Source: Candidatus Tritonobacter lacicola (lineage in GTDB: Bacteria; Auribacterota; Tritonobacteria; Tritonobacterales; Tritonobacteraceae). From it: a stretch of 64,000 nt of DNA. The translations under genes were made by a program, and so were the position numbers. Shown piece after piece: positions 13,851-58,004 of this stretch; within the stretch, counting starts at the first letter, position 1; every line of letters begins with the position of its first letter. The notes beneath the pieces were generated by a model. It had not been told where the DNA came from. It saw only the letters and a list, made by a program, of their open reading frames with translations, and made no database searches. The stretch is from NCBI GenBank assembly GCA_030765135.1, contig JAVCDC010000125.1, positions 31,607-95,606 of the forward strand, given 5' to 3'.

Positions 13851-13880
13851 TAAATTCGCGAGCGTAGCGAGCGAATTTAT
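13851..13880. promoter_or_regulatory. 30-bp near-palindromic element, copy 1 (TAAATTCGCGAGCGTAGCGAGCGAATTTAT)
   Basis: Reverse-complement version of the motif found at 25198, 27031, 31163 and 57975; about 80 nt upstream of the 11937..13772 gene start. Confidence 0.6.
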
Positions 13881-13922
13881 TAGTATAGGGAAAAAGAAAA
13901 CGTATGGGGAACGAAAAAAGGG

Positions 13923-16900
13923 CTACTCAATCCTGACGGCGGTCATTGCCGACGCGTCGTTGCCGGAGGGGATGATCCACAGGTCCCTGGCAAGCTGGTC
14001 CGGGTTGCGCGCATCCGCGTCCCAGTAGGTCCAGTCGCCGGGCCGGGGGGCGTTGTAGAAATAAAGGTTCATGTCGCCCCCGTTTTCAAGCTTCAGGATT
14101 GCAAGCTCGTCTGTCATGTCCAGGTCCATGTCTATCGCCGACAGGGCTATGGCGTCGTTGCCGCCCGGGATGATCCACATGTCCCTTGCCAGAGGAGTAG
14201 GGTTGCGCGAGAGGGCGTCCCAGTAGGTCCGGTCGCCGGGGAGCGGGCAGTTGTAGATGTAAAGGTTGACGTCGCCCGCGCCCTCCTTCTTAAGAATAGC
14301 CAGCTCCTTGCGCCCGTCTTCCGTCACGTCCAGGGCGGCGATGCCGACGGCGTCGTTGCCCGCCGGTATGATCCACATGTCGCGCGCCAGGGCCGACGGG
14401 TTGCGCGCATCCGCGTCCCAGTAGGTCCAGTCGCCGGGAAGGGGGCTGTTATAGAGATAAAGGTTGACGTCGCCGGCGCCCTCCTTCTTGAGCAGGGCGA
14501 TCTCCCTCTCCTGGCCATGGCCATCGACATCGATGGCCGCCATTCCCACCGCGTCGTTGCCGGAGGGGATAATCCACAGGTCCCTGGCAAGCGGGTCCGG
14601 GTTGCGCGCATTCGCGTCCCAGTAGGTCCAGTCACCCTCCACAAGGGTGTTGTAGATGTAGAGGTTGACGTCGCCCGTACCCTCCTTCGTGAGGACAAGG
14701 AGCTCATCGCTCGTGTCGCCCGTCAGCTCTATGGCAGCCGCGTTTATGGAGTCGTTACCCGCCGGTATGATCCACATGTCGCGCGCCAGGGCCGACTCGT
14801 TGCTCCCCTTCGCGGCATAATAATCCATGCTGCCCACGGCGGGACAGTTGTAGTAGTAGAGGTTGGAGTCGTTCAAATTCTCGCGCTTCATCAGGGCCAG
14901 CTTCCGCGGCCCGGCGGGAGAAGGCGTGGGCGTGCCCGTGACGGTGGGTGTATTCGATGGCGTGGCCGTCGGCGTGATGGTCGGCGTCGGTGTCGGGCCG
15001 AGGTAGAGAGTGAGCTTCACTGCCGTAACGTCATCAGCCGGGACGGTGGAGGTGAAGGACGCGCCCCCGAGCGGCCAGGTGATGTCCCGCCCCATCAGGT
15101 CAACCGCCCCCGTGACAGTGCCCGTTATACCAATGGCGGAGAGGTCAAGGGTTACGGTGATATTCTTCTGTACGGAATCCCTGTTCCAGATCGTCACGAC
15201 GACAGTGTCGCCCCCGCTCCCGACGAAACTGAAGGCCTTGAGGTTGACGGCGCCTGACGCGGTGAGGCCGAGGCCGGCCTTGAAGGAGCCGTGGTAGAAC
15301 GCGTCAGGGGCAGCGTCGTATGCGGCGTAGTACTTCGTGTGATCAACATAAGGATTTATAGGCCCCCCGGCCAGCTTGCAGCCGAATGTGAAACTCGCCT
15401 GCGGCCACGGCTCGGTTTTGTCCGGCACGCCGGGCGTCCTCTCCTTCATCAGTGAGCCGAAGACGCCGGGTAAGAGGTAGCGCGCCACCTCCGGGTAATC
15501 CCGCTCGGTACCGCCCCCCTCGGCCGTTCCCTGGTAGCCCGAAAGGTGATTCATCGACCAGAGGTCCACGTAAGGTATGAGGAAATCGCTTATCCCCTCG
15601 ATGCCGAGAATCCTGCCCGTCCCCTCGCCGGGAACCCGCCACACCTCGTCGTTGAGGCGCTTCAGGAAGCCCGTCAGGCCCGGCCCCATTGCGTGGGCGG
15701 GTGAGTAGTGGCCGTGGTCGGAGCCGTAGCAGAATATCTCGGGTGCGAATACCATGACACAGTCGAGCCAGGCGCCGTCCACACCCGCGTCTTTAATCTC
15801 CTCGTGGTCGTTTATGACAGTGTACCTGAGCGCCTCGCTGTGGAAGGACTGCTGGTAGAAGAGCTTGCCCTGCATGTAAGGCCATTCCACATACGCGCGG
15901 CTGCCGTCAGGCTTGATGACACTCTCGAGCGGGTTCGCCCCGAACCATGCCCCATCCCGGTCGGCGTGGAAGATGTTGGTGAAGTAGATGACATGATCCT
16001 GCTGCTGCTCGCACACCTGCATGGCCCCCTCGAGTTCTTCCCGGGTGCCCTTGCTTCCCTTCAACACGAAACGCGGCCAGTAATACTGGGAACTGCCATC
16101 CTCGTACCACTGCTGGTCCATGAGGTTATGGTTTTGATTTTCTTCCCATTTATTTAGAAGCTCCTCGTCGTACTCGGCGAACCTGTCCACAGTCCACCAG
16201 ATGAAGCTGTGGGCCTCCTTCGCCCAGTCCGGATAATCCCTCGTCCAGCCGGTGTTGGGGTTCTCGATGAACTCCCTGTAGCGGTCGGCGCCCCAGTACC
16301 AGCCGGGGCCGCTCTTGATGCCTATCTCCAGCACTGTGGAGTACCATATGCCATCATTGTAGTACCCCCCGCCCGGCTCCAGGAAGGGGAACTGCGTCAG
16401 CGCTATCTCCTCGTCTTTGTTCGCCCGGCCGGCTCCGCCGAGGGAGCCGTTCTGCCTGTCGTCGTAGCCGTAGCGGAAGGACTTGGCCACCGCGTCCTTG
16501 TCCAGTGCCGCGTAGTAGAGCCCCTCCACGTCGTTCCCGTACCACACCCACTGCCAGCCGCAGAGGGGGTACCTGGCGCCCCTTATGTGCACTGTTCCGG
16601 ATGGGAGTATCCTCTCGAAATTAAAATTCTCCCACCTCTCGCCGCGCCGGTGGGGCGTGATGCAGTAGTCGTCGCCCTCCAGGACGTTCAGGCCCCTTAT
16701 GTGAGGGTATGTGACTGATACGATGGTCCTTCCCGTATCCGTATCCGTATCCGTCGCCGGGTTGTCGATTATGATTCTCCACCGGGTGAAGGGACTGCCG
16801 TCTAATACCCTGACGCGCTGCGTCACCGTGCACTCGCCGGTACCCAGTGTAAACGAGTGATACATATTCAGCTCGATGTAACCGCTGCCAGGAATCGCCT

Positions 16901-17303
16901 CCCACTTCTCCCGGCCCGTGAGAGGTTTCTCCGTGAGAGGTTTCTCCCATCCCCTCACGACTGTGGTCCGGGACCTGTCGTGAGATGTCTCCCACTTGTC
17001 GGGGTTGTTATGGTAGCGGAGGAACCAGGAGCTCGTGTTGTGAGTTGCGTCGACGAAGTCCGTCCCGGTATCCCTGTTGATGAGGGAGAGGAGCTTCCCG
17101 TATGTCTTGTCGAAGTGGAGCTCCACCTTTGAGTTGCCAAGAACGAGGTAGTCGCCCGTGTCATTGAAGTAGCAGTCCTGCTGCGTGTGGGCAGGGGGAG
17201 GCGCGTATGCCGTGCACAGGCATACGACAAGAATCAGTTGTGGAAGATAAGTTTTCACACCGGAATACCCCCGTTGATACTCCCCGGCGATGCTCCCATT
17301 CAA
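13923..17303 (-). CDS. secreted multidomain protein: N-terminal putative glycoside-hydrolase-like domain, Pro/Thr linker, C-terminal FG-GAP-like tandem repeats
   Basis: Signal-peptide-like N-terminus (alternative GTG start near 17258). PTPTPTITPTATPSNTPTVTGTPTPSP linker. Four and a half near-identical ~66-aa modules (LARDMWIIPAGNDAVG.AAIDVDGHG.E.AILKKEGAGDVNLYIYN.P.PGDWTYWDADARNP) with a Dx(D/T)xDG calcium-loop-like motif. Confidence 0.55.
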   Translation of the reverse strand: MNGSIAGEYQRGYSGVKTYLPQLILVVCLCTAYAPPPAHTQQDCYFNDTGDYLVLGNSKVELHFDKTYGKLLSLINRDTGTDFVDATHNTSSWFLRYHNNPDKWETSHDRSRTTVVRGWEKPLTEKPLTGREKWEAIPGSGYIELNMYHSFTLGTGECTVTQRVRVLDGSPFTRWRIIIDNPATDTDTDTGRTIVSVTYPHIRGLNVLEGDDYCITPHRRGERWENFNFERILPSGTVHIRGARYPLCGWQWVWYGNDVEGLYYAALDKDAVAKSFRYGYDDRQNGSLGGAGRANKDEEIALTQFPFLEPGGGYYNDGIWYSTVLEIGIKSGPGWYWGADRYREFIENPNTGWTRDYPDWAKEAHSFIWWTVDRFAEYDEELLNKWEENQNHNLMDQQWYEDGSSQYYWPRFVLKGSKGTREELEGAMQVCEQQQDHVIYFTNIFHADRDGAWFGANPLESVIKPDGSRAYVEWPYMQGKLFYQQSFHSEALRYTVINDHEEIKDAGVDGAWLDCVMVFAPEIFCYGSDHGHYSPAHAMGPGLTGFLKRLNDEVWRVPGEGTGRILGIEGISDFLIPYVDLWSMNHLSGYQGTAEGGGTERDYPEVARYLLPGVFGSLMKERTPGVPDKTEPWPQASFTFGCKLAGGPINPYVDHTKYYAAYDAAPDAFYHGSFKAGLGLTASGAVNLKAFSFVGSGGDTVVVTIWNRDSVQKNITVTLDLSAIGITGTVTGAVDLMGRDITWPLGGASFTSTVPADDVTAVKLTLYLGPTPTPTITPTATPSNTPTVTGTPTPSPAGPRKLALMKRENLNDSNLYYYNCPAVGSMDYYAAKGSNESALARDMWIIPAGNDSINAAAIELTGDTSDELLVLTKEGTGDVNLYIYNTLVEGDWTYWDANARNPDPLARDLWIIPSGNDAVGMAAIDVDGHGQEREIALLKKEGAGDVNLYLYNSPLPGDWTYWDADARNPSALARDMWIIPAGNDAVGIAALDVTEDGRKELAILKKEGAGDVNLYIYNCPLPGDRTYWDALSRNPTPLARDMWIIPGGNDAIALSAIDMDLDMTDELAILKLENGGDMNLYFYNAPRPGDWTYWDADARNPDQLARDLWIIPSGNDASAMTAVRIE

Positions 17304-17571
17304 GCACCGCCCCTTTATCCGGTCAAGGACAATCTTTACGGGAGCCGCCTCCCGTAAAAAGATAAGCCCGCTCTCGCGAAAGAACGGGCCCCGGGCGCCA
17401 ATGCCTCAATCCAGCAGCCCGACCGCCGTGTCCCCTACGGGGATGTAGGCTCCAAGCTTTGTGCCCCACCCTTTCGCGGTGGTTTACCCTTAGGATTTAA
17501 TGTATTAAGTGAAAGAACAGCGCCTGCCCACTATATATATACCATCGCACCAGCGCTGTGTCAAGGAGGAT

Positions 17572-23607: not shown

Positions 23608-25182
23608 CTAACGTATCTTGTGAATAAAGTTCCTGATGCGGTCGAGGTCGCCCGTCAGAACGGACCTGACTCCCTTATAGACTACTATCCCGGAATCACC
23701 GAGACGGCAAAGGAGAGAATACATGGGATTGAGAAAACTACGGCCCAACAACCTCGTGAAGAACCGCCGACTCAGCACGCCGAGCAACCACCCGGGGAAA
23801 CAGCTGTATCCCGCCAGGTAGATAAGAAAATTGGGATATGAGCCGAGAGGGGTGTGGAGATGCTTGCCGTAAATCTGCCGCCTCTCGTCCGTCAGCCACC
23901 CGTCCCTCTTGCCTATCTCGTAGAGCTTCGTGCCGGGGAAGGGGACCAGCGAAGACCTCTTCAGCCAGAACGGCCGGGGCAGCCGCAGGAGAAGATCGAG
24001 GGTCTCCATCGTCTCCCCGGGAGTCTCCCACGGGTTATCGAGGATGACGTGATAACAGGGCCAGAACATGCGGGGCGTGAAACAGCTGATTATCCGCGCC
24101 GCTTTGAGAATCTGCTCGTTCGTCGAACTCCGGTTGAACATGGAGCGTGTCCTCTCGTTTCCCGTCTGGACGCCCATTTCGACAAAGACCAGGCCGGCGT
24201 CGATCATGAGCTCCATCTTCTTCTCCGTGATCGTCGCGGGGCTCACCTGTATGTAGAAGGGCAGCCCGATAGCCTCTTTATAAAGGCGGCAGAAATCCGC
24301 GATCTCCGCCTCGCTCCTGAGAGCGAAGGTGTCGTCGAAGATGTTGATCCCCTCTATCCCGGGGAACTTCGCGGTGATCTCCCCGAGCTCGGCGATGATG
24401 TTCGGCACGCTTCTCTTGCGAAGGTGCTTCTGGCGGGGAAACATCTCCTTCATGATGCTTATCGAGCAGTAGTAGCAGCTGTGGGGGCACCCCCTCACGG
24501 TGTAAGTCTTGTACGTCCTCCACATCTTCCCGTACGGGTCGTAGAGGGTGCTCTCGGGAGACGGCTCCCTGGGGAAGGAGCGGCAGAGGAGCTCGGGCGT
24601 CATGCCGACTATGCGGCCCTCGTCCATGTGATAAACGTAGTGGTCCTCCAGGTCGTAATCGTAAAACGGGAGGCTGTCGAGGTCCTCGACCAGCGGGCGG
24701 AGCGGGTTCCTCTTCACCCTCCCGTCCTCCTTGAACCAGACTCCGCGGGTATCGGTGCAGTCCCGGCCCTCGCCCATCCTGTTTAATATCTCCTCGAGGG
24801 CCTCCTCCCCGTCGCCGATGCACACCATGTCCGCGTGCTCGAGGGCCTCCTCGGGCTTGACCGTGGGGTGAATACCGCCCCATATGACGGGAGGGCCGCC
24901 CGTCCCCTTCACGGCGCGGGTGAGCTGGACGGCGCGGTCGAAGTAGTTTGTCATGAGCGAAACGCCTACCAGGTCGGCATCTCCGCAGAGGGCGGCGACC
25001 TCGTCCAGGACGCGCGGCTCGTACCTGTACTCGTACCCTGCCCTGTGCTTCATCATCGCGACGCCTCCGGGGAGAAAAATAATGTTCACACCGTGCCCCC
25101 TGCTCTTGAGGTACGCCGATATAGACCTCACTCCGAAAGCGCTGAGGTCAGGCGGCGTCGGCGCCACTAAAACAACCTTCAT
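23608..25182 (-). CDS. B12-binding domain radical SAM enzyme
   Basis: MKVVLVAPTPP...DADLVGVSL; VRGCPHSCYYCSIS CxxxCxxC; about 45% identity by eye to the 20922..22418 paralog. GAGGAG 6 nt upstream of the ATG. Confidence 0.75.
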   Translation of the reverse strand: MKVVLVAPTPPDLSAFGVRSISAYLKSRGHGVNIIFLPGGVAMMKHRAGYEYRYEPRVLDEVAALCGDADLVGVSLMTNYFDRAVQLTRAVKGTGGPPVIWGGIHPTVKPEEALEHADMVCIGDGEEALEEILNRMGEGRDCTDTRGVWFKEDGRVKRNPLRPLVEDLDSLPFYDYDLEDHYVYHMDEGRIVGMTPELLCRSFPREPSPESTLYDPYGKMWRTYKTYTVRGCPHSCYYCSISIMKEMFPRQKHLRKRSVPNIIAELGEITAKFPGIEGINIFDDTFALRSEAEIADFCRLYKEAIGLPFYIQVSPATITEKKMELMIDAGLVFVEMGVQTGNERTRSMFNRSSTNEQILKAARIISCFTPRMFWPCYHVILDNPWETPGETMETLDLLLRLPRPFWLKRSSLVPFPGTKLYEIGKRDGWLTDERRQIYGKHLHTPLGSYPNFLIYLAGYSCFPGWLLGVLSRRFFTRLLGRSFLNPMYSLLCRLGDSGIVVYKGVRSVLTGDLDRIRNFIHKIR

Positions 25183-25197: not shown

Positions 25198-25229
25198 AAT
25201 AAATTAGCTCGCTACGCTCGCAAATTTAT
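25198..25229. promoter_or_regulatory. 30-bp near-palindromic element, copy 2
   Basis: ATAAATTAGCTCGCTACGCTCGCAAATTTAT, 16 nt upstream of the rSAM start at 25182. Confidence 0.6.
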
Positions 25230-25440
25230 GTGGCTCCGACTGCGTCGGAGCATTGTGACAGCCAAAAGCTTTATCCTGCACACCCTACCCCGGTCCCGGT
25301 GGGACTTTCCGTCAATAACTGCCGGATCTTAGACCCTCCGGCGGGATCCCTATCGGGAAAGGGTGCGGCTACCTTTGTAAACATAACAAATTCCTATACC
25401 ATTAAATTATTGGAATTTATTCAATTGGCCGAATTAAAGC
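25198..25440. repeat. repeated intergenic element, copy A (30-bp palindrome + GCTCCGACTGCGTCGGAGC hairpin + conserved 3' block GGCTACCTTTG.AAA.ATAACAAATTCCTATAC)
   Basis: Shares three collinear blocks with 57975..58140. Confidence 0.6.
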
Positions 25441-25504: not shown

Positions 25505-27031
25505 TTATGTTTTATTATTCTTACCCCCCCTCGCCGCGAGGTAAAGCCTGATCAGGCGCCGCCTGATATAGCTCCACCCCTTCCTGAAGATAAAGAGGGG
25601 ATCGTTTACGATGAAGAGGCGGTACTCGCGAAGCCGCCGGGTGAGGCTCCGGTGATACCTGTAAACCCAGCCCGCTATCTCGCTTGCCGCCTTCTCGAAG
25701 TCATCCCTGCTCACGTCCTTCATGAAGTGGTTTACGGGCCACGCGCCGAACCGCCTCCAGTCGGGTTTTTCCGGGACAAGCCCCAGCTCCGCGCACCTCT
25801 CCATGAGCGGGCTCCCGGGCAGCGGCTCGAAGATATTGAAGATGATCGACGGCGTCCTGAGCGAGCGCATAAGAGAGAAGGTCCGGCGGATGTCGTCGAG
25901 CGTTTCCTCCGGGAAGCCGATGATGAAGTTCGCCCCGGCCGTTATACCGTTCCTGTACATGAGCTCGTACGCCTCCCGTATCTGGCGCAGGTCGACCCTC
26001 TTCTCTATGATTTTCAGCATCCTGTCGCTTCCCGACTCGATGCCTATCGAGAGACCGGCGCAGCCCGCCCTCTTCATCAGCTTCAGGAGCGGCTCCTCGA
26101 GAATATCGGCCCTGGTCATGGTGAGCCATGAAATATTCAGCCGCTCCTCTATCATGCGCTCACACAGCTCGGTGACGTACTCCCGGTTGACGGTAAAGTT
26201 ATCGTCGAGGAAGTTGACTATCCTGGCATTGAAAGTCCGGGTGAGGTATCTGACTTCCTCGATGACCCTGCCCGGCGACCGGAACCGCACGGTCCTCCTC
26301 CAGAAGAGGGGTGACGAGCAGTAGGCGCACTTCCACGGGCACCCCCTCGACGCCATGACGCCGACGAACGGCATCCGCCTGTAGGCTCCGGGCCTCAGAA
26401 CGAGGTGCGCGGCCGGCACGGGGAGAGCGTCCAGGTCCTCGATACACTCCCTGTCCGGGTTGTGGATCGTCTTTCCTCCTTCGATAAACGAGATGCCACG
26501 AATGGACCTCAGCCCCGGCCCCTTCCCCTCCAGGGAGGCGCAAAGCTCGGCAATGGTGCTCTCCCCCTCGCCCCGGACGATAAAGTCTATCCCGCCGTAG
26601 CCCAGGACATCATCGGGAAGGAAAGTCGGGTGGGCGCCTCCCCAGGCGACGGCGGTGGACGGGTTCATCTCCTTCGCGATCCTGCTCACCTTGAGGGCGC
26701 TGCCCACCTCCCCAGTGAGAACGCTGACCCCCACGAAGTCCGGCGAGAAATCCCCGATCACGCGCCGGACCTCCCGCCACACGGGATGGTCGTCCTCCCC
26801 GAGCGACCTCAGGTAGCGGGCGTGGCTCTCTCCCCGCTCCCTGAACATCGTAAACTCGTCCGGGACTATGCCGACCCCCAGGCCGGTGCTGTTGTCACCG
26901 TGATAAATACCCACCTCGTGCCCTTCCGCTTCGAGAACGGCAGCGAGGTAACCCACCCCGAGCGAGAAGATTGGAAGCTCCTCGAAGCCCTTCAGCCTCT
27001 TATAGGGCGGCCTGATAAGCAGCGCTCTCAT
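25505..27031 (-). CDS. B12-binding domain radical SAM enzyme
   Basis: MRALLIRPPYKRL...PDFVGVSV; SRGCPWKCAYCSSP CxxxCxxC. Its start codon is flush against the 30-bp palindromic motif. Confidence 0.75.
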   Translation of the reverse strand: MRALLIRPPYKRLKGFEELPIFSLGVGYLAAVLEAEGHEVGIYHGDNSTGLGVGIVPDEFTMFRERGESHARYLRSLGEDDHPVWREVRRVIGDFSPDFVGVSVLTGEVGSALKVSRIAKEMNPSTAVAWGGAHPTFLPDDVLGYGGIDFIVRGEGESTIAELCASLEGKGPGLRSIRGISFIEGGKTIHNPDRECIEDLDALPVPAAHLVLRPGAYRRMPFVGVMASRGCPWKCAYCSSPLFWRRTVRFRSPGRVIEEVRYLTRTFNARIVNFLDDNFTVNREYVTELCERMIEERLNISWLTMTRADILEEPLLKLMKRAGCAGLSIGIESGSDRMLKIIEKRVDLRQIREAYELMYRNGITAGANFIIGFPEETLDDIRRTFSLMRSLRTPSIIFNIFEPLPGSPLMERCAELGLVPEKPDWRRFGAWPVNHFMKDVSRDDFEKAASEIAGWVYRYHRSLTRRLREYRLFIVNDPLFIFRKGWSYIRRRLIRLYLAARGGKNNKT

Positions 27032-27060
27032 AAATTAGCTCGCTGCGCTCGCAAATTTAT
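27031..27060. promoter_or_regulatory. 30-bp near-palindromic element, copy 3
   Basis: TAAATTAGCTCGCTGCGCTCGCAAATTTAT, flush with and overlapping the rSAM ATG at 27031. Confidence 0.6.
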
Positions 27061-27130
27061 TACAAAAAATTTTTGAAATTCCGAGGCAGTAAATTAATTC
27101 GCTCCGCTCATTCATCCTGCATCCCGTATC

Positions 27131-27234: not shown

Positions 27235-29046
27235 TTACTGAATGTATCCCAGGCTCCTGAGCTTCTCCTCTGTCTCGTAGTCCATGACCGTGACGGCCTC
27301 ACCCGCCCTCGGCAACTCCATGATCGAGCGGATCCTCTCCCGGTACTCCTTCACCAGGTCCTCCCGCTCCTTCGATATGTCCCGCAGTTCCAGGGGGTCC
27401 CCGTCCAGGTCGTAGAGCTCCACGGCATCGCCCGGCTTCACGATAAGCTTGTAGCGGTCCGTGCGGTAGGCGACATCGACCGGCCCGTCCCCCATCCGCT
27501 CCGCGACCTGGATCAGGGCGCCCTCCCGCGCGCGTGAGGCATCGCCCTTCATAAGCGGGAGCAGGCTCTCCCCCCCGCACCAGCCGGGGACCTCGAGGCC
27601 GGCCAGCTCCATTATCGTCGGGGCGATGTCGATGGTCTCGACAGGCTGCGGGACGCGCACCGGGCCGACCAGCCCGCGGCTCCGGATGAGCAGCGGCACC
27701 CTTATATGCCCATCGTAGAGCGCCTGGCTGTGACAGAAATAGAGGTCGTGCTCGGTGAGGCTCTCGCCGTGGTCACCTACGACCACGAGTATATAGTCGC
27801 CGGACCTCTCATCAAGCGCCTTCAGGAGCCTCCCCAGCTCCGCATCCATGTAGGTTATCTCCGCGTCGTACTGGGCGATCGGGTATTCGACGTCCGTGAA
27901 ATTGCGCAGCCGGGGCGGCCAGTAGGGGGGCAGCTCGATGCCATCCATCGACCGGTTGTCCGGGTCGTCCTTCCGCCCCTCGTAGTACATGCCCGAGTAG
28001 GGAGCCGGCGGCTCATAGGGGCCGTGTGGATCATTATAGTGCACCCAGAGAAAGAAGGGGACGCGCGCGGACCGCAGCCATGACACGGCATCGTCTGTCG
28101 TCCGGGCGGCAATCCGCTGAAACCTCCCGCCGGCAGTCCGCCCCAGCCAATCGGCAGCACACACGAGCACCAGGCTGTGGAATCCCTTCAGCCGCGAGAA
28201 ATCGTCGTCGTATATTTCGAACCCCCCTGAGAACCCGAACCGCGAATCAATCGGGAAGGCGCTCACGAACGCAGCCGTCCTGTAACCGCGCTTCCCGAAC
28301 TCGTGTACTATCTTCGGGATCTCCGGAGAGTGCCGCTGCTTGTTGCCAAGGACACCGTGCTGGTGCGGGTAAAGCGAGGTAAGGATGGAGAGGTGCGACG
28401 GGTTCGTCACGGGTATCTGGCTGATCGCGTTCTCGAAGAGGACTCCCTCAGACGCTATCCCGTCCAGAGTCGGCGTCAGGATCCGCTCGTTCCCGTAACA
28501 GTGGAGGCGGTCGGCCCTGACGGTGTCGAGCGCCACCAGGACTATGTTCGGCAGCCCCTCCTGCGGCGACGGCCCGCGCGCACCGGGAATCGCCAGCCAG
28601 GCGGTGATCCCCGCGAAGACGGCGATGCCGGCATAGACGCCCCTCCTGCCCCTGAGCTGGCCGCCGAGGGACAGGCCGGCAACAGCCGAGAGGAGGGCGG
28701 AGAGGGCGACCAGGACGGACGCCCACAGCAGAAACGGAGGAGAGAGGAGGACGGCCATACGGGACAGCCTGAAGGTTATGAGGTAAGCGAAGCCGTAGAG
28801 GAGACACCACGCCATGGCTGAGGAGGAGACGGCCACCCTCCATGGCGACGCCCGCCAGAGCCTCCGCCAGAGGGGGTAAAAGAGAACGCACGCGGCCGCA
28901 CCGTACAGCGCGTACATGAAGACTGCAACCAGTATAATCCCCAGCCTCCCCGCGGGAGTGAAATACAGCTCACGGATTGACGCCGCCTCGCCGTAGCCGA
29001 CGAGCCCACCCACCATGGCGCAGAAATATACCGCTCTCTTCATCAT
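27235..29046 (-). CDS. LtaS/EptA-like membrane-anchored sulfatase-fold (alkaline-phosphatase superfamily) transferase, paralog 1
   Basis: About 5 N-terminal TM helices, then a sulfatase-domain core IVLVALDTVRADRLHCYGN...ISQIPVTNPSHLSILTS...HG; the canonical C-x-P-x-R is replaced by T-N-P-S-H, consistent with a Thr nucleophile as in LtaS/EptA/MdoB. Confidence 0.65.
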   Translation of the reverse strand: MMKRAVYFCAMVGGLVGYGEAASIRELYFTPAGRLGIILVAVFMYALYGAAACVLFYPLWRRLWRASPWRVAVSSSAMAWCLLYGFAYLITFRLSRMAVLLSPPFLLWASVLVALSALLSAVAGLSLGGQLRGRRGVYAGIAVFAGITAWLAIPGARGPSPQEGLPNIVLVALDTVRADRLHCYGNERILTPTLDGIASEGVLFENAISQIPVTNPSHLSILTSLYPHQHGVLGNKQRHSPEIPKIVHEFGKRGYRTAAFVSAFPIDSRFGFSGGFEIYDDDFSRLKGFHSLVLVCAADWLGRTAGGRFQRIAARTTDDAVSWLRSARVPFFLWVHYNDPHGPYEPPAPYSGMYYEGRKDDPDNRSMDGIELPPYWPPRLRNFTDVEYPIAQYDAEITYMDAELGRLLKALDERSGDYILVVVGDHGESLTEHDLYFCHSQALYDGHIRVPLLIRSRGLVGPVRVPQPVETIDIAPTIMELAGLEVPGWCGGESLLPLMKGDASRAREGALIQVAERMGDGPVDVAYRTDRYKLIVKPGDAVELYDLDGDPLELRDISKEREDLVKEYRERIRSIMELPRAGEAVTVMDYETEEKLRSLGYIQ

Positions 29047-29110
29047 GTTGTTTTCATGCCCGTTACCCTGATTATAGTCCTGTTTAATCCGAAGTGTATT
29101 TTTCTTTTTC

Positions 29111-29369: not shown

Positions 29370-31163
29370 TCACTGTATGTAGCCCAGGCTCTTGAGCCTC
29401 TCCTGTGTCTCGCGGTCCATCAGGGGCACCCCGCGGGCGGTCGGGGCCGTCATCACCGATGCGATCCGCTCCTTCAGCTTGAGAACCAGATCCTCCCTCT
29501 CGCCGGAGATGTCGCGCAGCTCCCCCGGGTCCTTTCGAAGGTCGAAGAGGCGCGTCTCCTTTCCCGGGCGGACGATAAGCTTATACCCGCCGTCGTAGCA
29601 GGCGACGTCAAGGATGGACTCGTCTCCCTGCCGCCGCGTCTCGCTCAGCCCCTCGCCCGGCCCGGCGTTCTCGCCTTTCATGAGGGGAACGAGGCTCCTG
29701 CCCGAGCACCAGCCGGGCGCCTCAAGCCCCGCAAGGTCCAGGAGGGTTGGAACGATATCGATGGTCTGGACAACGGCTCCCACGCGCACCGGCTCGCCGG
29801 ACTTCCCGTGGCGAATAATCATGGGGACCTTGACCTGGTCATCGTAGAGATAGTCGCCGTGGCGGAAATAATACCCGCGCTCGTCAAGGCTCTCGCCGTG
29901 GTCACCGACGACAACGAGGATGGTGTCCCCGGAGCGCGAGTCTATCTCCTCCAGGAGCCTCCCGATCTGGGCGTCCGTGTAGGTGACCTCCGCGTCGTAC
30001 TGGGCGATGGGGTAGGCGATATCGGTGAAATCGCGGATCGTGGGCGGCCAGTAAAGAGGCATCTCCACACCGTCCATGCTCCGGTTGGCAGGGTCGTCCT
30101 TCCGCCCCTCGTAGTACATTCCAGAGTAGGGAGGCGGCGGGGCGTACGGGCCGTGAGGGTCGTAATAGTGCACCCACAGGAAATAGGGCTGCCGGGCGAT
30201 CCTGCGGAGCCAGGAGACGGCGTCATCGTTCGTGCGCCCCGCGATCCGCTCGAGGCGCCCGCCGGTTATCCCGAGTATCGAATCGATCACGCGCACGAGC
30301 GTCAGGCTCTGGTATCCCTTGAGGCGGGAGAAGTCGTCGTCGTATATCTCGAAACCGTCCGAGAAGCCGAACCGCGAATCCAGCGTGAAGGAGCTGACGA
30401 ACGCCGCCGTCCTGTAACCGAGCCTGCCAAGCTCGTGGACGATCTTCGGGATATCATCGGAATGCCGGTGCCAGTTCTCAACGACACCGTGCTGGTGGGG
30501 GTAGGTAGAGGAGAGGATCGATAGATGAGACGGGTTCGTTATGGGAATCTGGCTGACAGCGTTCTCGAAGAGGACTCCCTCAGACGCCAGCCGGTCGAGA
30601 ACCGGCGTGCGGACCCTGTCGTTTCCGTAACAGTGCAGTCGGTCCGACCTGATGGTATCGATCGTCACAAGGATTATATTCGGCAGCTCCCCCGGGGGCG
30701 CGGACGGGCGGCCTACGGGAAACACCATCCAGACCGTGAGCGCCGCGAAAATAACAGCGCCCGCATAGAGGCTTCTCTTCCCCTTCAGTACCCGGCCGAA
30801 CGCTCCCCCGGCCAGGAAGGAGATGGCAACGGATGCGACGAGGACGGCCGCCCCCCACATGAGAAACCGGTGCGCCTCACGGTGCATCAATCGGGAGATA
30901 ACCAGGTAGCCGAGGCCGTAAAGGAGGCACCACGCCATGACGGAGGAGGAGACGGCCGCCCTCCATGGCGACGCCCGCCGGAGCCTCCGCCAGAGGGGGT
31001 AAATAACCAGGCACGCGACCGCGCCGTACAGCGCGTACATGAAGACGGCAACCAGTATAATCCCCAGCCTCCCCGCGGGAGTGAAATACAGCTCCCGGAT
31101 TGACGCCGCCTCGCCGTAGCCGACGAGCCCACCCACCATGGCGCAGAAATATACCGCTCTCAT
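29370..31163 (-). CDS. LtaS/EptA-like sulfatase-fold transferase, paralog 2
   Basis: Same architecture. The N-terminal ~90 aa are nearly identical, at nucleotide level as well, to paralog 1. PITNPSH motif. Confidence 0.65.
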   Translation of the reverse strand: MRAVYFCAMVGGLVGYGEAASIRELYFTPAGRLGIILVAVFMYALYGAVACLVIYPLWRRLRRASPWRAAVSSSVMAWCLLYGLGYLVISRLMHREAHRFLMWGAAVLVASVAISFLAGGAFGRVLKGKRSLYAGAVIFAALTVWMVFPVGRPSAPPGELPNIILVTIDTIRSDRLHCYGNDRVRTPVLDRLASEGVLFENAVSQIPITNPSHLSILSSTYPHQHGVVENWHRHSDDIPKIVHELGRLGYRTAAFVSSFTLDSRFGFSDGFEIYDDDFSRLKGYQSLTLVRVIDSILGITGGRLERIAGRTNDDAVSWLRRIARQPYFLWVHYYDPHGPYAPPPPYSGMYYEGRKDDPANRSMDGVEMPLYWPPTIRDFTDIAYPIAQYDAEVTYTDAQIGRLLEEIDSRSGDTILVVVGDHGESLDERGYYFRHGDYLYDDQVKVPMIIRHGKSGEPVRVGAVVQTIDIVPTLLDLAGLEAPGWCSGRSLVPLMKGENAGPGEGLSETRRQGDESILDVACYDGGYKLIVRPGKETRLFDLRKDPGELRDISGEREDLVLKLKERIASVMTAPTARGVPLMDRETQERLKSLGYIQ

Positions 31164-31192
31164 AAATTAGCTCGCTGCGCTCGCAAATTTAT
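31163..31192. promoter_or_regulatory. 30-bp near-palindromic element, copy 4
   Basis: Same sequence as copy 3, flush with the ATG of LtaS-like paralog 2. Confidence 0.6.
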
Positions 31193-31273
31193 TATAAAAA
31201 ATTTTTGAAATTCCGAGGCAGTAAATTAATTCGCTCCGCTCATTCATCTTGCATCCTGAATCCTGTATCTTTT

Positions 31274-33774: not shown

Positions 33775-35628
33775 TCACCTGATGTATCCCAAGCTACGGA
33801 GCTTCCCCTCCGTCTCGTAGTCCATAACCGAACTCGCCTCCATGGCCTGTCCCTTCGTAAGCGAGAGAATCCTCTCCCGGTATTTATCGATCAGGTCACC
33901 CCGCTCCTTTGAGATGTTCCTGAGCTCCCGGGGGTCGTTCTGGAGATCGTAGAGTTCGACATCGGCTCCCGGTTTGACGATGAGCTTGTAACGGTCGTCC
34001 CGGTAGGCGAAATCTACCGTCCCGTCTCTCTTTCTTCCGCCCGTTTCGCTCAGGGCTCCCTCTTTCGACGCCGCGTCCCCTCTCATTACCGGGACGAGGC
34101 TCTTTCCCCGGTACCACGCGGGAATGTCAATCCCCGCAAGCTCGAGAATCGTCGGGGCTATGTCGATATTTTCAACGGGGCTCGACAGCCTGACAGGCTC
34201 CACCTTCCCTTTCATCCTGAGAATAAGGGGAACTCGTATGTGCTCGTCATAGAGGGCCGAATCATGGCGGAAATAGAGGTCATGCTCGGTCAGGCTCTCC
34301 CCGTGGTCGCCGACGACGACCAGGAGGTACTCTTCACCGATCCAGGCGTCGAGCTCCTCCACGAGCCTCCCCAACTCTGCGTCCGTGTAGGTGATCTCCG
34401 CATCGTATTGAGCTACGGGATAATTGATGTCCGTGAAATCGACTGCACCGGGCGTCCAGTCGGGGGGCAGCTCGATACCCTCCATGCTGTGGTTGTTCGG
34501 GTCGTCTTTCACTCCCTTATAATACATTCCCGAATACGGGGAAGGAGGAGCGTATGGCCCGTGGGGATCGAAATAGTGAACCCAGAGGAAGAAGGGGGTC
34601 TTCGCCCTGCTGCGCAGCCACGATAGAACCTCGCTATTCGTCTCCCGGGCGTCTCGCTTGGTCATCAGCCGGCGAAAGGCTCTCAGGCCCCACCCCCTTG
34701 TAATGGCGACCCCGGCTATGCGAACCATGGAGAGGCCTTGGAACCCTTTGACTCCCGGGCCGCTGTCGTCGTATATCTCGAATCCCTCGGCAAAGCCGAA
34801 GCGGGATTCCAGAGGAAACGCACTTACGAACGCGGCAGTACGATATCCCCTCCTCGCGAACTCGTCGACAATGGTCGATATGCCCGGAGGACGCCTGCTC
34901 CTGTTATGCATGACTCCCAACTCATGAGGATAGCGGGAGGAGAGAATCGACAGGTGCGACGGATTCGTTACGGGGATCTGGGATATCGCATTTTCGAAGA
35001 GGGCCCCCACCGACGCCAGCCTGTCCATGGTGGGAGTCTCGATCGGCTCATGCCCGTAGCAGCAAATGCGATCGGCCCTGATCGTATCGATTGTCACCAG
35101 AACCACACTCGGTACATCCGCTCCGGGCTGCGCATCCCTTTTACCGGGCACAAAAGCCCAGATACCGAGAGCGAAGACCGCGCACGCCGCAGCTGCGGCC
35201 CATCCTCTCATCTTTAAAACGGTACCGGCGATCCAGCCGAAGAGGCATGCTGTAACGACGGAGGCCGCCATGAGTCCCGCAAAACACAGAAAAAAGCGTG
35301 CTGAGAAGGGGCCGCTCCTCGAGGGAATGCCGAAGAGCAGAATGGCAACGCTGTAGAGCAGAGCGATGGAGAATACGGCCGCCGGGTACACCGCCCGCGC
35401 GTCGTGGCGCGGCATAAGGACACGCCACGCAAAGGAGATGAGCACGGTGGCCGCCATTCCGTATACCGCGTAGCTCGCCGGAGCAGCGAGCAGCAGGCCG
35501 ATCTTTCCCGCGGCGGTGAAATAGAGCCTCGAGTAGACTATGAGAAGCACCGCCTCGGTATAGCCTGCGAGGCCGCCGAAGACCGCCCCGGCGATAATCG
35601 CCCTCCCTATAAATCCCCGTTTGGTCAT
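33775..35628 (-). CDS. LtaS/EptA-like sulfatase-fold transferase, paralog 3
   Basis: MTKRGFIGRAIIAGAVFGG N-terminus; TM domain plus sulfatase core with PVTNPSH. Confidence 0.65.
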   Translation of the reverse strand: MTKRGFIGRAIIAGAVFGGLAGYTEAVLLIVYSRLYFTAAGKIGLLLAAPASYAVYGMAATVLISFAWRVLMPRHDARAVYPAAVFSIALLYSVAILLFGIPSRSGPFSARFFLCFAGLMAASVVTACLFGWIAGTVLKMRGWAAAAACAVFALGIWAFVPGKRDAQPGADVPSVVLVTIDTIRADRICCYGHEPIETPTMDRLASVGALFENAISQIPVTNPSHLSILSSRYPHELGVMHNRSRRPPGISTIVDEFARRGYRTAAFVSAFPLESRFGFAEGFEIYDDSGPGVKGFQGLSMVRIAGVAITRGWGLRAFRRLMTKRDARETNSEVLSWLRSRAKTPFFLWVHYFDPHGPYAPPSPYSGMYYKGVKDDPNNHSMEGIELPPDWTPGAVDFTDINYPVAQYDAEITYTDAELGRLVEELDAWIGEEYLLVVVGDHGESLTEHDLYFRHDSALYDEHIRVPLILRMKGKVEPVRLSSPVENIDIAPTILELAGIDIPAWYRGKSLVPVMRGDAASKEGALSETGGRKRDGTVDFAYRDDRYKLIVKPGADVELYDLQNDPRELRNISKERGDLIDKYRERILSLTKGQAMEASSVMDYETEGKLRSLGYIR

Positions 35629-37545: not shown

Positions 37546-37633
37546 TAATCCCGCCATGTCCATCGATCAGGCGCGTAAAAAAGAATAATTATCACCCCGG
37601 GGCGTCATTAGCAAGAGAGAATACAACAGCGTA

Positions 37634-46440: not shown

Positions 46441-46550
46441 ACGTCAATCCGCGGCACGCACAAAGTGACAAAGCCAGCCTTTATAATTTAATGAGTTTTA
46501 TGAGTTATACGTAGGGCAATAACCATCTAATAAATTATTCAACTCATTTA

Positions 46551-46652
46551 ACGTTACACGTCACACGTTCCACGTTACACGTTTATTTCTTCACGTCACA
46601 CGTTCCACGTTACACGTTTATTTCTTCACGTCACACGTTACACGTTACACGA
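46551..46652. repeat. tandem heptamer array D (CACGTNN)n, about 12 copies with an internal 36-bp duplication
   Basis: Read directly; it lies between the methyltransferase start (46440) and the rSAM/SPASM stop (46645). Confidence 0.9.
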
Positions 46653-51490: not shown

Positions 51491-51545
51491 ATTCAATCAT
51501 CAATTACCGGCAGTCAATTGTCAATCGTCAATCGTCCTTCTCGCA
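51491..51545. repeat. (TCAATCG)n-type repeat at the 3' end of the REC-GGDEF gene
   Basis: attcaatcatcaattaccggcagtcaattgtcaatcgtcaatcgtccttctcgcaatcttccttctcg; the stop codon sits at the same position in the repeat as at 10390. Confidence 0.8.
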
Positions 51546-52472
51546 ATCTTCCTTCTCGCACAAGCAGACCCTGTCCTTCCCCTCGTACTTGGCCCTGTAA
51601 AGAGCGCGGTCGGCAAGCTCCACGAGCTCGCCGGTCGTAGCGGCGTCTCCGGGGCACGAGGCTATGCCGATGCTTACCGTGAGCTTGCCGCCGGGGAGAA
51701 CATCTTCGTTCTCGAATTTCTCTTCCCGGACGATATCCCGGAACCTGCCGGCTATCTCGAGGGCGTCACTCCTGCCGGTATGGGGAAGTATCACGGCGAA
51801 CTCCTCTCCCCCGTACCGCGCTATAATGTCGCTCTTGCGCATGGAGCTCTCGAAGAGATGGGACAGGCCTTTCAGCAGCTCGTTTCCCTTTATGTGGCCG
51901 TTCACGTCGTTGTATATTTTAAAATCGTCGATGTCCACCATCATCAGCGACACCGGGTATGAATACCGCAGGGCGCGGCCGAACTCTAGCTCCAGGCACT
52001 CCTTGAAGTGCCTGTAGTTGTAAACACCGGTCAGCTCGTCCACGATGGAGAGCTGGCGGAACTTCTCTCGCTCGCTGGCGGCCTTCATCAAGCCCTGCCT
52101 CTCGCGAGCCCTTTCAACGATCATCCGCAGCATTTCCAGAGTGAAGGGCTTGGTGATAAAATCATAGGCTCCCTTCTGGATCGCTTCCGCGACAGACTTG
52201 ATGGAAGGAAAGGAAGTGATCGCCACGATGCACGAATCGGGCCTCAACCGGTGCATGGCCTCTATGATGCCCATCCCCTCCCCGCCGGAGAGCTCCAGGT
52301 TGACCATGATAACGAAGTAGAAATGCTCACCCGCCTTCTCCAGTCCCTCACCGGCGGTCTCGCACGTCGATACGTCATAGCCGTCCCTCTCGAGGACGCC
52401 GACAAGGAGCCCGCGCATCAACTCGTCGTCCTCGATAACAAGAATTTGTCCCTTGTTATTTTGCTCTTCCAT
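51528..52472 (-). CDS. response regulator with GGDEF diguanylate cyclase output (PleD/WspR-like)
   Basis: REC domain ILVIEDDELMRGLL; GGDEF domain with RYGGEEFAVILP active site. Confidence 0.75.
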   Translation of the reverse strand: MEEQNNKGQILVIEDDELMRGLLVGVLERDGYDVSTCETAGEGLEKAGEHFYFVIMVNLELSGGEGMGIIEAMHRLRPDSCIVAITSFPSIKSVAEAIQKGAYDFITKPFTLEMLRMIVERARERQGLMKAASEREKFRQLSIVDELTGVYNYRHFKECLELEFGRALRYSYPVSLMMVDIDDFKIYNDVNGHIKGNELLKGLSHLFESSMRKSDIIARYGGEEFAVILPHTGRSDALEIAGRFRDIVREEKFENEDVLPGGKLTVSIGIASCPGDAATTGELVELADRALYRAKYEGKDRVCLCEKEDCEKDD

Positions 52473-56469: not shown

Positions 56470-57234
56470 TTACAGCACCTTTCTTCTGAAGACGATCCAG
56501 GCCAGAAGAACGAACGCCGCCACGTAGCACGCCGTGTAAACCGTCAGCACCGTCACAGCCGGGGCCGGCACGGGCGGCCACATGTGGATAACACGTGTCT
56601 TTATGTCGTAAAACTCGAAGTGCGGGAGGATGAAGTAGAGCGCCGAGCACAGGAAAGAGGGCAGAGCGGCCATCTGCTCCGCCATGTCGTGTAGGCGCGC
56701 GCCCAACAGCTTGATGAAGAAATAGACGAGGAAAGAGAGGGTGACGTTTGCGCCGTACGTAAGGAAAGTCGAGAAAAATATAACCATCGATGCAACGAGG
56801 AGGACGGACAGCAGCTGAAGATAGTACGACTGCAGTATTAAAATCCATCCTGTCCCCTGCCCCGCGGAGATGACGGTGAAGAAGGCGTAAAATATCGTCA
56901 GGCCGAAGATCGATGCAAGGCTCGCCCCGAGAAACTTCCCCATGATGAACCCCAGCCGGCTTATCGGCTTCGCCAGGAGCGGGTAGATCGTCCTCTTCTC
57001 TATCTCGCACGGGAGCTGGCGGCCCGCCGAAACAACTGTGATTATCAGGACGAAAAGCCATATCAGGGACAGCGACAGGTCGCGCATGTAACGCGTGGCC
57101 CCCGCTATACCCATGAACCGGTACCCGGAGGAGAGCAACACGATTACCACCGTCAGGGCGAGGATGACGTAATAATCTTTACGCCGGAAGAACTCCCTCA
57201 CGACGTTTACGGCAACGGCCCACACACCCTTCAC
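56470..57234 (-). CDS. ABC-2 type transporter permease
   Basis: Six TM helices, 254 aa; its stop abuts the downstream gene, and ATGA overlap with the upstream ATPase. Confidence 0.6.
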   Translation of the reverse strand: MKGVWAVAVNVVREFFRRKDYYVILALTVVIVLLSSGYRFMGIAGATRYMRDLSLSLIWLFVLIITVVSAGRQLPCEIEKRTIYPLLAKPISRLGFIMGKFLGASLASIFGLTIFYAFFTVISAGQGTGWILILQSYYLQLLSVLLVASMVIFFSTFLTYGANVTLSFLVYFFIKLLGARLHDMAEQMAALPSFLCSALYFILPHFEFYDIKTRVIHMWPPVPAPAVTVLTVYTACYVAAFVLLAWIVFRRKVL

Positions 57235-57971
57235 GGCCTGGCCTCCCTTATCATCTCGATGAAAAACCTCTCCAGCGACTCCTTCCTCTCCGACAGTATC
57301 TCATCGAGGGTGCCCGAACGTATCAGCCTGCCGCCGTGGACGATCCCGACGTGATCGCATATCAGCTCTACCTCGGAGAGCTCATGGGACGAGAAGAAGA
57401 CGGTCTTGCCCGACGCCTTGAGGTTCCTGATGATTTCACGCACCTTGATCCGGGCGATCGGGTCCAGACCTCCGGTCGGCTCGTCGAGTATGAGAAGCTC
57501 CGGGTCGTTCAGGAGGGCCTGCGCGAGGCCCACCTTCTGGAGCATGCCCTTGGAGTAATGCTTGAGAAGGGTCTTCTCCTCCCCCCGCAGCCCCACCAGC
57601 TCGAGGACCTGCTCCGTCCTCTCCGCGATAAGGCGCTTGTCCATGCCGAAGATCCTGCCGTACATCGCCATAATCTCCCCGGCATTGAGGAAGCTGTAGA
57701 AATAGGAGACCTCCGGAAGGTATCCGAGGCGCCTGTGCGACCGGATGTCGGCCGCACGCATTCCAAGGACGGTTATATCTCCGCTCTTCGGGAACACCAG
57801 GCCGAGCAGCGCCTTGATCGTGGTCGTCTTGCCGGCGCCGTTCGGGCCGAGGAACCCGTAGATCTCGCCCCTGGCAATGGATATGGACAGGCCGTCCAGC
57901 GCCCTCCTGGCGCTCCTCCCGGCGCCGTACTCCACGACGAGCTCCCTTATCTCTATAACGTTCTCGCTCAC
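57231..57971 (-). CDS. ABC transporter ATP-binding protein
   Basis: Walker A GPNGAGKTT, signature LSKGMLQKVGLAQAL, Walker B LLILDEPTGGLD. GTG start flush against the 30-bp palindromic motif. Confidence 0.8.
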   Translation of the reverse strand: MSENVIEIRELVVEYGAGRSARRALDGLSISIARGEIYGFLGPNGAGKTTTIKALLGLVFPKSGDITVLGMRAADIRSHRRLGYLPEVSYFYSFLNAGEIMAMYGRIFGMDKRLIAERTEQVLELVGLRGEEKTLLKHYSKGMLQKVGLAQALLNDPELLILDEPTGGLDPIARIKVREIIRNLKASGKTVFFSSHELSEVELICDHVGIVHGGRLIRSGTLDEILSERKESLERFFIEMIREARP

Positions 57972-57974
57972 TTT

Positions 57975-58004
57975 AAATTAGCTCGCTACGCTCGCAAATT
58001 TATT
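57975..58004. promoter_or_regulatory. 30-bp near-palindromic element, copy 5
   Basis: TAAATTAGCTCGCTACGCTCGCAAATTTAT, 3 nt upstream of the GTG start of the ABC ATPase. Confidence 0.6.

Follow-up and report, generated by a model that had tools for sequence, protein, structure and literature searches.

A 33-nt hairpin element recurring at gene starts in Candidatus Tritonobacter lacicola and related Auribacterota

Why does one short imperfect palindrome occur five times on a single bacterial contig, mostly flush against start codons? This question is raised by a stretch of 64 kb (contig JAVCDC010000125.1 of assembly GCA_030765135.1, positions 31,607 to 95,606 of the forward strand), hereafter called the window, from Candidatus Tritonobacter lacicola. 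The organism is known as a metagenome-assembled genome (MAG) from Ace Lake and belongs to the phylum Candidatus Auribacterota within the Planctomycetes-Verrucomicrobia-Chlamydiae (PVC) group; repeats and promoters are not mentioned in the paper describing it (PMC9324843). Since the identical sequence is present in independent assemblies from ENA, JGI and Logan, the repeat is no assembly artefact. An earlier note on this DNA had interpreted it as the operator of a dimeric repressor or activator. The analysis reported here points to another answer, as the element looks like a generic gene-start signal that is copied and spread, and not like the switch of one regulon.

The window contained exactly five copies of the 30-mer on which that note was based, with 0-2 mismatches, and zero matches were obtained in 100 dinucleotide-preserving shuffles. 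The purine-rich strand of these sites lies on the plus strand at 13850-13879 and on the minus strand at 25200-25229, 27031-27060, 31163-31192 and 57974-58003, within 2 nt of the positions originally reported. The same five sites were retrieved with the 15-nt core GCGAGCG(Y)AGCGAGC alone (0.48 expected) and with a covariance model run with filters off. The model gave these five copies 50-58 bits when correctly oriented, as opposed to 13-24 bits in the wrong orientation, and disclosed no additional decayed copies in the window. On the gene strand, the four minus-strand copies read ATAAATTTGCGAGCG(T/C)AGCGAGCTAATTTA. The full copies are:

25198..25230, minus strand, full copy CATAAATTTGCGAGCGTAGCGAGCTAATTTATT, 57.9 bits
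27029..27061, minus strand, full copy, 55.4 bits
31161..31193, minus strand, full copy, 55.4 bits
57972..58004, minus strand, full copy, 53.4 bits
13849..13881, plus strand, inverted copy with perfect 10-bp arms ATAAATTCGC/GCGAATTTAT, 50.6 bits

The copy at 25198..25230 is followed by 17 nt, which include the GAGGAG seen before, and by the ATG of a B12-binding radical S-adenosylmethionine (rSAM) gene (23608..25182). In the copies at 27029..27061 and 31161..31193, the final A (27031 and 31163, respectively) is already the A of the ATG, in the first case of a B12-rSAM gene (25505..27031) and in the second of an LtaS-like sulfatase-family gene (29370..31163). Only AA separates the copy at 57972..58004 from the GTG (57971) of an ATP-binding cassette (ABC) transporter ATPase gene (57231..57971). 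These three copies thus end 0-2 nt before ATG or GTG and leave, as had been stated, no room for a Shine-Dalgarno (SD) sequence. The copy at 13849..13881, correctly described as inverted, is located 41 nt past the stop codon of the open reading frame (ORF) 13923..17303 and 77 nt (previously given as about 80 nt) ahead of the SD-led ATG (13772) of 11937..13772. The flush starts in the window are credible, as judged by comparison of the encoded proteins: the Pfam domains of the downstream genes start where these start codons predict, and the paralogue encoded by 27235..29046 begins with MMKRAVYF, the product of 29370..31163 with MRAVYF. Genes of the window vary in SD use; among those not preceded by the element, many likewise have no SD and are A-rich before the ATG.

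The element comprises 33 nt. Its description as a near-palindrome is right for the AT-rich arms ATAAATT and AATTTAT, which are true inverted repeats and the only ones on duplex DNA; the core is a direct repeat, GCGAGC-N3-GCGAGC, whose symmetry depends on the counting of G·A pairs. Folding of the purine-rich strand yields an outer part of seven A-T pairs, a T·T mismatch, and a G-C and a C-G pair, and an inner part made up of tandem G·A/A·G pairs, again a G-C and a C-G pair, and a GNA triloop. This hairpin was predicted as the minimum-free-energy fold both for RNA and for DNA, and it was retained in the predictions when the entire leaders were folded. All four bases were seen at the loop centre, and nearly all copies have the tip GCG[A/C/G/T]AGC. 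Tip variants with flipped pairs keep C-G or T-A closing the GNA loop, and one copy (L089; L numbers denote loci) has an AAA loop. As DNA, the mini-hairpin d(GCGNAGC) is reported to be extraordinarily stable for any N and to contain a sheared G·A pair; GCGNAGC sites occur in the hairpin promoters of phage N4, in the origin of phage G4 and in the primase site ssiA of RSF1010 (PMC13037366).

A scan of one genome per species with the query ATTNGCGAGCGNAGCGAGCNAAT gave at least 96 loci. Among the matches listed, about 55 loci belonged to the two MAGs JAZDIV01 ('PVC group bacterium') and CAWGIE01, which contributed at least 22 and at least 25 loci to the first 80. NusA of CAWGIE01 is 89% identical to that of Candidatus Euphemobacter frigidus, another species of the Auribacterota. 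The copies of both MAGs have the same 33-mer with the same arms as the window; outside the element, the DNA of the window and that of the MAG loci showed no similarity. The canonical copies of the window and of the two MAGs among the matches listed were pooled into a set of 60.

In 40 copies of this set, the first long ORF starts 6-11 nt, most often 9 nt, past the second GCGAGC (0-5 nt past TAATTT). The distance is 15-27 nt in a further 11, about eight of which have an AGGAGG-type SD right after the element. Altogether, an ORF in sense orientation starts no more than 27 nt downstream of 51 of the 60 copies. In the antisense direction, no ORF was present at 43 copies, and only two showed a start at 6-11 nt. 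The 3' arm TAATTTAT hence ends either 0-5 nt ahead of the start codon or directly ahead of an SD. The copies are single and oriented and do not form inverted pairs. At least 12 of them have a divergent upstream gene, which means that the element is tied to the downstream gene and not to the end of the upstream one, and that its orientation does not simply follow the direction of replication. Six downstream proteins (among them FtsH, NDK and ProB) are publicly annotated with exactly the flush starts, and N-terminal motifs appear at the expected place if these starts are used, e.g., GxGTR at residue 8 and MKLSVVIPVYNE in a family 2 glycosyltransferase (GT2). The proteins encoded downstream include initiation factor IF-2 (infB), PheT, GatA, FtsH, NDK, ProB, LpxB, AcpS, Dtd and Prs, as well as GT2 and GT9 glycosyltransferases, ABC components and radical-SAM enzymes. 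Such diversity, housekeeping genes included, rules out a dedicated regulon. Thus, the element is oriented with the downstream gene, whatever the class of this gene, and abuts its translation-initiation region. The link between a cis element and gene starts made in the earlier note was corroborated in the form of an orientation-specific association; the operator and the regulon attached to it were not.

Variation within the hairpin was tallied on distinct sequences of the canonical lineages. Pair 14-20 of the inner stem was GC in 37 sequences, CG in seven and AU in two, pair 15-19 was CG in 44 and UA in two, and neither was ever unpaired. All changes of the inner stem are therefore compensatory, while the tandem GA is invariant. 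The covariation score of the inner stem was 0.089 versus 0.025 in shuffles (reached in 0/500), and slid controls gave at most 0.031. Between lineages, covariation was also seen in the outer arms, where the four pairs outside the constant ATT/AAT scored 0.236 versus 0.103 (0/500), with slid controls of at most 0.093. These outer pairs are ATAA/TTAT in Auribacterota, CCAC/GTGG in a Terriglobia MAG and others elsewhere; metagenome contigs resembling Auribacterota have the arm variants CGAGTT/AACTCG or CAAGTT/AACTTG. Judged by these compensatory substitutions, the fold of the hairpin has been kept by selection.

The occurrence of the element at a given gene is variable. In CAWGIE01, it fills the spacer between nusA and infB, starting 21 nt past the nusA stop codon and being followed 3 nt later by the infB ATG. 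It is absent at this site in seven relatives, whose NusA proteins are 89, 82, 76, 69, 64, 55 and 54% identical, indicating a quick turnover; in the case of nusA-infB, a conserved operator at orthologous genes was rejected for the same reason. In two of the element-free relatives, we observed other small GNA-triloop hairpins at the infB start, followed by an A/T-rich sequence and the ATG (L104:1700-1745, TAGCGCCGAAGGCGCTAattaataaaATG; L106:11310-11350, tttttacGGAgtaaaaattttaaaaATG). The public gene call for L104 places the infB start 33 nt too far downstream. The two MAGs were also compared with each other at orthologous genes. At the orthologous loci L045 and L051, an identical 33-mer precedes proteins that are just 78.5% identical, while of the orthologues L036 and L008 one has the element and the other a completely replaced upstream region. 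The same gene is preceded by a canonical copy in L058 and by the flipped-pair variant GCGACCGAAGGGAGC in L011. L058 also contains a decayed flush 3' half-copy before another gene, whose orthologue in L011 has no copy. Two old orthologous copies (L045:6279 and L051:6855) have kept arms and inner stem, but AGCGAGC has changed to AGGGAG or AAGGAG, which is an SD at the usual spacing. The SD position thus seems to be taken by the 3' strand of the core. The unit is itself palindromic, target-site duplications were not observed, and orthologue pairs with and without the element (L008 versus L036, L011 versus L058) differ over the whole upstream region and do not display a clean insertion. These comparisons of orthologous loci show the element as gained, lost and replaced between close relatives.

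The 15-nt core was also found outside the Auribacterota. A metagenome scan for VTTGCGAGCGNNGCGAGCTAA disclosed 98 loci with GC contents of 0.30-0.72. In low-GC organisms, several different tRNA genes were seen to be interrupted in their T-loop, past TTCGAA, by insertions of about 105 nt (L145, L183, L119, L197, L176, L116, L195 and L206). The insertions consist of three hairpins, including the GCGAGCGAAGCGAGC core on the antisense strand, and resemble a family of mobile tRNA introns; ARAGORN calls none of these genes. The core is also present at one conserved marine low-GC locus, the neighbours of which are archaeal or eukaryote-like. High-GC sediment contigs harbor several repeat families of 100-200 nt (L127/L138/L170/L173/L191; L130/L181/L113/L165; L152/L177/L162; L124/L147), the conserved part of which ends in the hairpin, namely in TTGCGAGCGNAGCGAGCTAA, usually plus GTTC, or in a one-base variant, and is followed by unrelated flanks, as at the terminus of a mobile element. 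Heptamer-like repeats were observed in these families too. Examination of 112 ORFs that flank non-canonical copies revealed no transposase. The notion that the motif might be part of a known mobile-element terminus, which the earlier note had named as speaking against its own view, is correct to the extent that, in other lineages, the core hairpin ends such families; a known transposon was not identified. A REP-like family of Terriglobia MAGs (REP, repetitive extragenic palindrome; L002, L003, L013, L015, L020, L048, L052, L053 and L060) shares the inner 25 nt with its Y·T mismatch, here set between GC-rich arms CCCACATT/AATGTGGG; its copies in L052 and L060 lie 15-20 nt past a stop codon, and some copies adjoin (GGAAACT)n repeats. 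Furthermore, the core occurs in tandem arrays of Bacteroidota and, as ATTGGCGAGCGAAGCGAGCCAAT, in a CRISPR spacer between two atttccatcccactatggtctgattttaac repeats on the chromosome of Methanothermococcus sp. Ax23 (L017), which implies that some invader of this archaeon carries the hairpin. All in all, the core behaves as a cosmopolitan module of small insertions, of which the Auribacterota cassette is one specialised use.

The reading that we favour, with a confidence somewhat short of even, is that the element is a lineage-specific hairpin cassette in many copies, dispersed in a way similar to REPs and miniature inverted-repeat transposable elements (MITEs), which has been co-opted as the final leader segment ahead of the start codons of diverse genes. 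In the transcript, it would make up the 3' end of the leader. Its weak AU stem would open and present an A/U-rich, SD-less landing site to the ribosome, with the GC/GA mini-hairpin at the usual place of the SD helix, 6-11 nt from the AUG. In this manner the element may define or protect the 5' region of the mRNA and set translation initiation, and the cassette may spread like REPs, MITEs or 'mobile promoters', by copying of upstream regions or by recombination.

Several findings weigh against this reading. A hairpin ending 0-5 nt from the AUG would fall within the footprint of the ribosome. A few canonical copies abut opposite-strand stop codons (L011, L084, L071), and the inverted window copy is antisense to both of its neighbours. 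As RNA, the 33-mer is only moderately stable according to nearest-neighbour calculations (-7.2 kcal/mol, z = -1.35), the inverted copy being far more stable (-13.2 kcal/mol, z = -3.6), and the published stability of GCGNAGC refers to DNA, not RNA (PMC13037366). In the tRNA insertions, the core is transcribed in the pyrimidine orientation. Finally, G·U is not enriched among the non-Watson-Crick cells of the arms (about 12 G·U versus 56 other), so that covariation cannot separate an RNA from a DNA hairpin.

The main alternative, which we regard as unlikely, is a portable core promoter acting at the DNA level. In this case the 5' arm (TAAATT or TAAATTTG) would be the -10 region, transcription would start inside the core, and the 3' half would serve as a short A/U-rich, SD-less leader. 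TAAATT and TAATTT both match TAnnnT, the two hexamers being exactly 17 nt apart; the implied leader of 15-21 nt resembles those of other genes in the window, and the paralogue 27235..29046 has a TATAAT 26 nt before its ATG. The copies between divergent genes, at least 12 in number, need a promoter nearby, decayed orthologous copies retain the arms while the core drifts, and near-identical upstream sequences before non-homologous genes are what has been described as 'putative mobile promoters' (PMC3488235). However, no sigma-70-like site was detected at any copy by a consensus scan; the TAAATT of the 5' arm could act as a -10 region by itself. The modules upstream of the copies are varied and offer no consistent -35 region or promoter. 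A -10 hexamer within a palindromic arm cannot account for the strict orientation, and the 3' hexamer cannot serve as -10 region, as an SD or the ATG follows within 0-5 nt. The perfect complementarity of the arms, the compensatory changes of the inner stem and the invariant tandem GA would remain unexplained, as would arms that have lost TAAATT and are still paired (GAGTT/AACTC, AAGTT/AACTT).

Distinctly unlikely, in our opinion, is a selfish REP- or MITE-like hairpin without any role in expression, whose position would reflect AT-rich targets near coding boundaries and the purging of other insertions. It agrees with the patchy distribution in close relatives and the absence from orthologous sites, with the degenerate remnants, with copies at opposite-strand stop codons, and with the core at the ends of the 100-200-nt repeat families, in tRNA T-loops and in the Methanothermococcus CRISPR spacer. 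On the other hand, the 40 flush sense copies out of 60, located before essential genes like infB, pheT, gatA and ftsH, would destroy initiation unless the element itself supplied the function. The identical 33-mer at the orthologue of 78.5% identity argues for constraint or homogenisation. Moreover, target-site duplications were not seen, whole upstream regions are replaced where a clean insertion would be expected, and the 112 ORFs flanking non-canonical copies include no transposase.

A bolder version of the leader model, to which we assign a low probability, regards the hairpin as the translation-start determinant proper, i.e., as an RNA mini-helix with tandem sheared G·A pairs and a GNA triloop, 6-11 nt from the AUG, that either replaces the SD:anti-SD helix or is recognised by the ribosome or a factor associated with it. 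Auribacterota would employ it throughout the genome in the form of a mobile cassette, its core belonging to a cross-domain family of 'jumping hairpins' found also in tRNA T-loops and REP-like repeats of bacteria and archaea. Still less probable is recognition of the G·A hairpin, at a multitude of gene starts, by a globally acting protein that binds nucleic acids, be it a nucleoid protein, an RNA chaperone or a global repressor. The tandem GA and the GNA loop remain invariant while adjacent pairs flip, which is typical of a non-canonical motif recognised by a protein, and the core is kept across lineages with different arms; but it is found in bacteria and archaea of very different proteomes, which makes a single dedicated regulator unlikely.

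It is very doubtful whether the element stops or gates transcription from upstream as an intrinsic terminator or attenuator. The sequence has an A-rich arm, a GC-rich hairpin and the TAATTTAT tail, i.e., an A-tract, a stem and a U-rich stretch. The inverted window copy 41 nt past a stop codon has, being antisense to both neighbouring genes, a terminator-like position, and some MAG copies lie at convergent stop codons. Yet a terminator scan flagged no copy, and neither stem nor tail is continuous, G·A pairs breaking the former and A residues the latter. Upstream of at least 12 copies there is no gene in the same direction, and essential genes would be silenced if transcription were efficiently terminated 0-5 nt from their ATG. 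Next to nothing is left of the dyad operator of a dimeric regulator controlling one regulon of rSAM, LtaS-like, GT-C and ABC-exporter genes: the four sense copies of the window do precede envelope and rSAM-type genes, and homologous rSAM and sulfatase-family genes carry copies at L035 and L056, but the conserved core is a direct repeat and no Watson-Crick dyad, its variation tracks the pairing of the hairpin, the genes downstream in related genomes (infB, pheT, gatA, ftsH etc.) are functionally unrelated housekeeping genes, and the gene mix of the window arises because these genes happen to be encoded there.

Some further identities were considered and rejected. An archaeal TATA box with a leaderless mRNA would fit with respect to ATAAATTT, 22-29 nt before the ATG; the host is bacterial, according to its taxonomy and to a cyclic di-GMP (c-di-GMP)-I riboswitch. 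In a bacterial leaderless mRNA with TAATTT as -10 region, this hexamer would end 0-5 nt before the ATG, and in about eight copies an SD follows directly. A sigma-54 promoter was discarded, as no GG is present 10 nt upstream of TTGC, and a phage origin, as only three viral contigs match. The hairpin+GTTC boundaries of the sediment families, viewed together with the target preference of IS91, suggested an end of an IS91-like (HUH) transposon; this was dismissed, since the flanking ORFs contain no transposase and the canonical copies lack GTTC.

Besides the element, the upstream regions in the window contain the following features:

27090..27109, minus strand, degenerate 3' half-copy GAGCGGAGCGAATTAATTTA, followed by the module CTGCCTCGGAATTTCAAAAA at 27070-27089
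31222..31241, minus strand, second degenerate 3' half-copy, followed by the module CTGCCTCGGAATTTCAAAAA at 31202-31221
25233..25251, minus strand, GC-rich hairpin gctccgacgcagtcggagc, 3 nt upstream of the element
58007..58025, minus strand, the same upstream hairpin gctccgacgcagtcggagc, before the 57974 copy
58260..58289, minus strand, sigma-70-like site TTGAGA-18-TATAAT (11/12), about 256 nt upstream of the element of the 57974 copy

The module CTGCCTCGGAATTTCAAAAA was also found after copies in other Auribacterota contigs, and the hairpin gctccgacgcagtcggagc is one form of an upstream-hairpin module that precedes most copies. The site at 58260..58289 is the best sigma-70-like site near any copy and the sole strong one; it is a candidate for the promoter of a long structured leader ending in the element. 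The leaders at 25233-25400 and 58007-58190 (both minus strand) have a conserved 5' block GGTATAGGAATTTGTTATRTTTWCAAAGGTAGCC in common, with which their 3' block GGCTRYCACAATGCTCCGACGCAGTCGGAGCC can pair (GGTAGCC/GGCTACC). This stem contains G·U pairs in one copy and encloses variable hairpins. According to this pairing model, the leaders of the 25200 and 57974 copies could represent an undescribed structured leader; a search of both regions against Rfam gave no match. Upstream of many MAG copies, we observed a hairpin ('module a') that forms the right arm of a unit with inverted repeats, about 200 nt long (GTAGGATCGTCC...GGACGATCCTAC; L057:3090-3350 and L045:6700-6955), with cUUCGg-type hairpins. 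This unit looks like a MITE nested against the element.

Intergenic tandem arrays of heptamers are present upstream of genes at 27125-27260, 29101-29396, 31270-31450, 46533-46660, 10348-10423 and 51507-51554, two of them just upstream of element copies. The heptamers are of the ACGTGWA type, with A-tracts approximately every 21 nt, or of a second type, TCGTCMW. Other Auribacterota loci have heptamers of their own, i.e., CAACCAG (L105), TGAACCG (L107) and CTTTACA (L139/L196). As regards the genes, four paralogous LtaS-like sulfatase-family genes (27235..29046, 29370..31163, 33775..35628 and 35689..37563) adjoin a YfhO-like gene, and at least two B12-binding radical-SAM genes (23608..25182, 25505..27031) lie near them. 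The N-termini of several ORFs in the vicinity are alike. Over their first 258 nt, two of the sulfatase paralogues show 93% identity, although their upstream regions are different. The ORF 13923..17303 encodes 1126 aa without a Pfam match, contains internal repeats of about 200 nt and is preceded by a c-di-GMP-I riboswitch aptamer (17410-17498, minus strand; 57.8 bits, E=1e-08).

If the cassette reading is true, a candidate phylum uses one near-invariant 33-nt cassette before a sizeable fraction of its genes, essential ones included. This would be an unusually uniform and portable solution to SD-less expression and a natural case in which 'parts' such as promoters or leaders are copied from place to place within a genome. 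The element offers a testable handle on SD-less initiation outside model organisms, for which the compensatory and the SD-acquiring variants indicate the positions that matter. The recurrence of the G·A mini-hairpin in bacteria and archaea suggests an undescribed class of small hairpins that is either mobile or convergently selected. For gene callers and regulon predictors, the motif is best treated as a generic gene-start repeat and not as a transcription-factor site.

Rfam covariance models did not match the copies, neither at the gathering threshold nor at E<=10, and the core sequence, in variant spellings, was not found in the literature. Among known systems, the element resembles the REPs, bacterial interspersed mosaic elements (BIMEs) and REPINs in being a short, extragenic, multi-copy imperfect palindrome with a patchy distribution between relatives. 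REPs and BIMEs of Proteobacteria are 20-40 nt long, reach copy numbers of dozens to hundreds, form strand-specific folds with conserved mismatches and are mobilised by REP-associated tyrosine transposases (RAYTs; Y1 HUH). In contrast to our element, which is single, oriented and start-abutting, REPs mostly follow stop codons, can point either way and often form inverted pairs, and the sequence of the element is not known to be related to published REPs. Correia elements of Neisseria (NEMIS) and similar MITEs are dispersed palindromes near gene starts that are co-transcribed and alter expression. They differ by their size of 100-150 bp, their terminal inverted repeats of 26 bp and the TA duplication, and we know of no fixed start-codon abutment in them. 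Integron attC sites are likewise strand-specific hairpins with unpaired bases, situated between a stop and the next start codon and mostly in one orientation, but the element lacks R/L boxes and the GTTRRRY core and stands before core genes in nusA-infB synteny; no integrase context was seen at the element loci.

Hairpins and A/U-rich strands near the start codon govern SD-independent or structure-gated initiation in the SD-less leaders of the rpsA type (Escherichia coli) and in the fourU and ROSE thermometers. These are, however, devices of single genes and not a cassette in many identical copies. The centre of the element is exactly the GCGNAGC of the N4, G4 and ssiA mini-hairpins, and the N4 hairpin is a promoter element at gene starts. 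Those phage and plasmid signals are read by dedicated enzymes on single-stranded DNA, whereas the element is chromosomal, has the tandem G·A and AT arms in addition and precedes housekeeping genes. The putative mobile promoters, upstream sequences that non-homologous genes share in almost identical form (Matus-Garcia et al., PMC3488235; PMC3575422), are similar in that the element also stands before non-homologous genes, within and between genomes. They are defined by upstream similarity only, while the element is a 33-nt hairpin at a fixed distance from the start codon, the promoter activity of which is putative. The element is therefore best filed with the dispersed palindromic repeats of the REP, MITE and mobile-promoter kind, among which its fixed abutment to start codons is the unusual trait.

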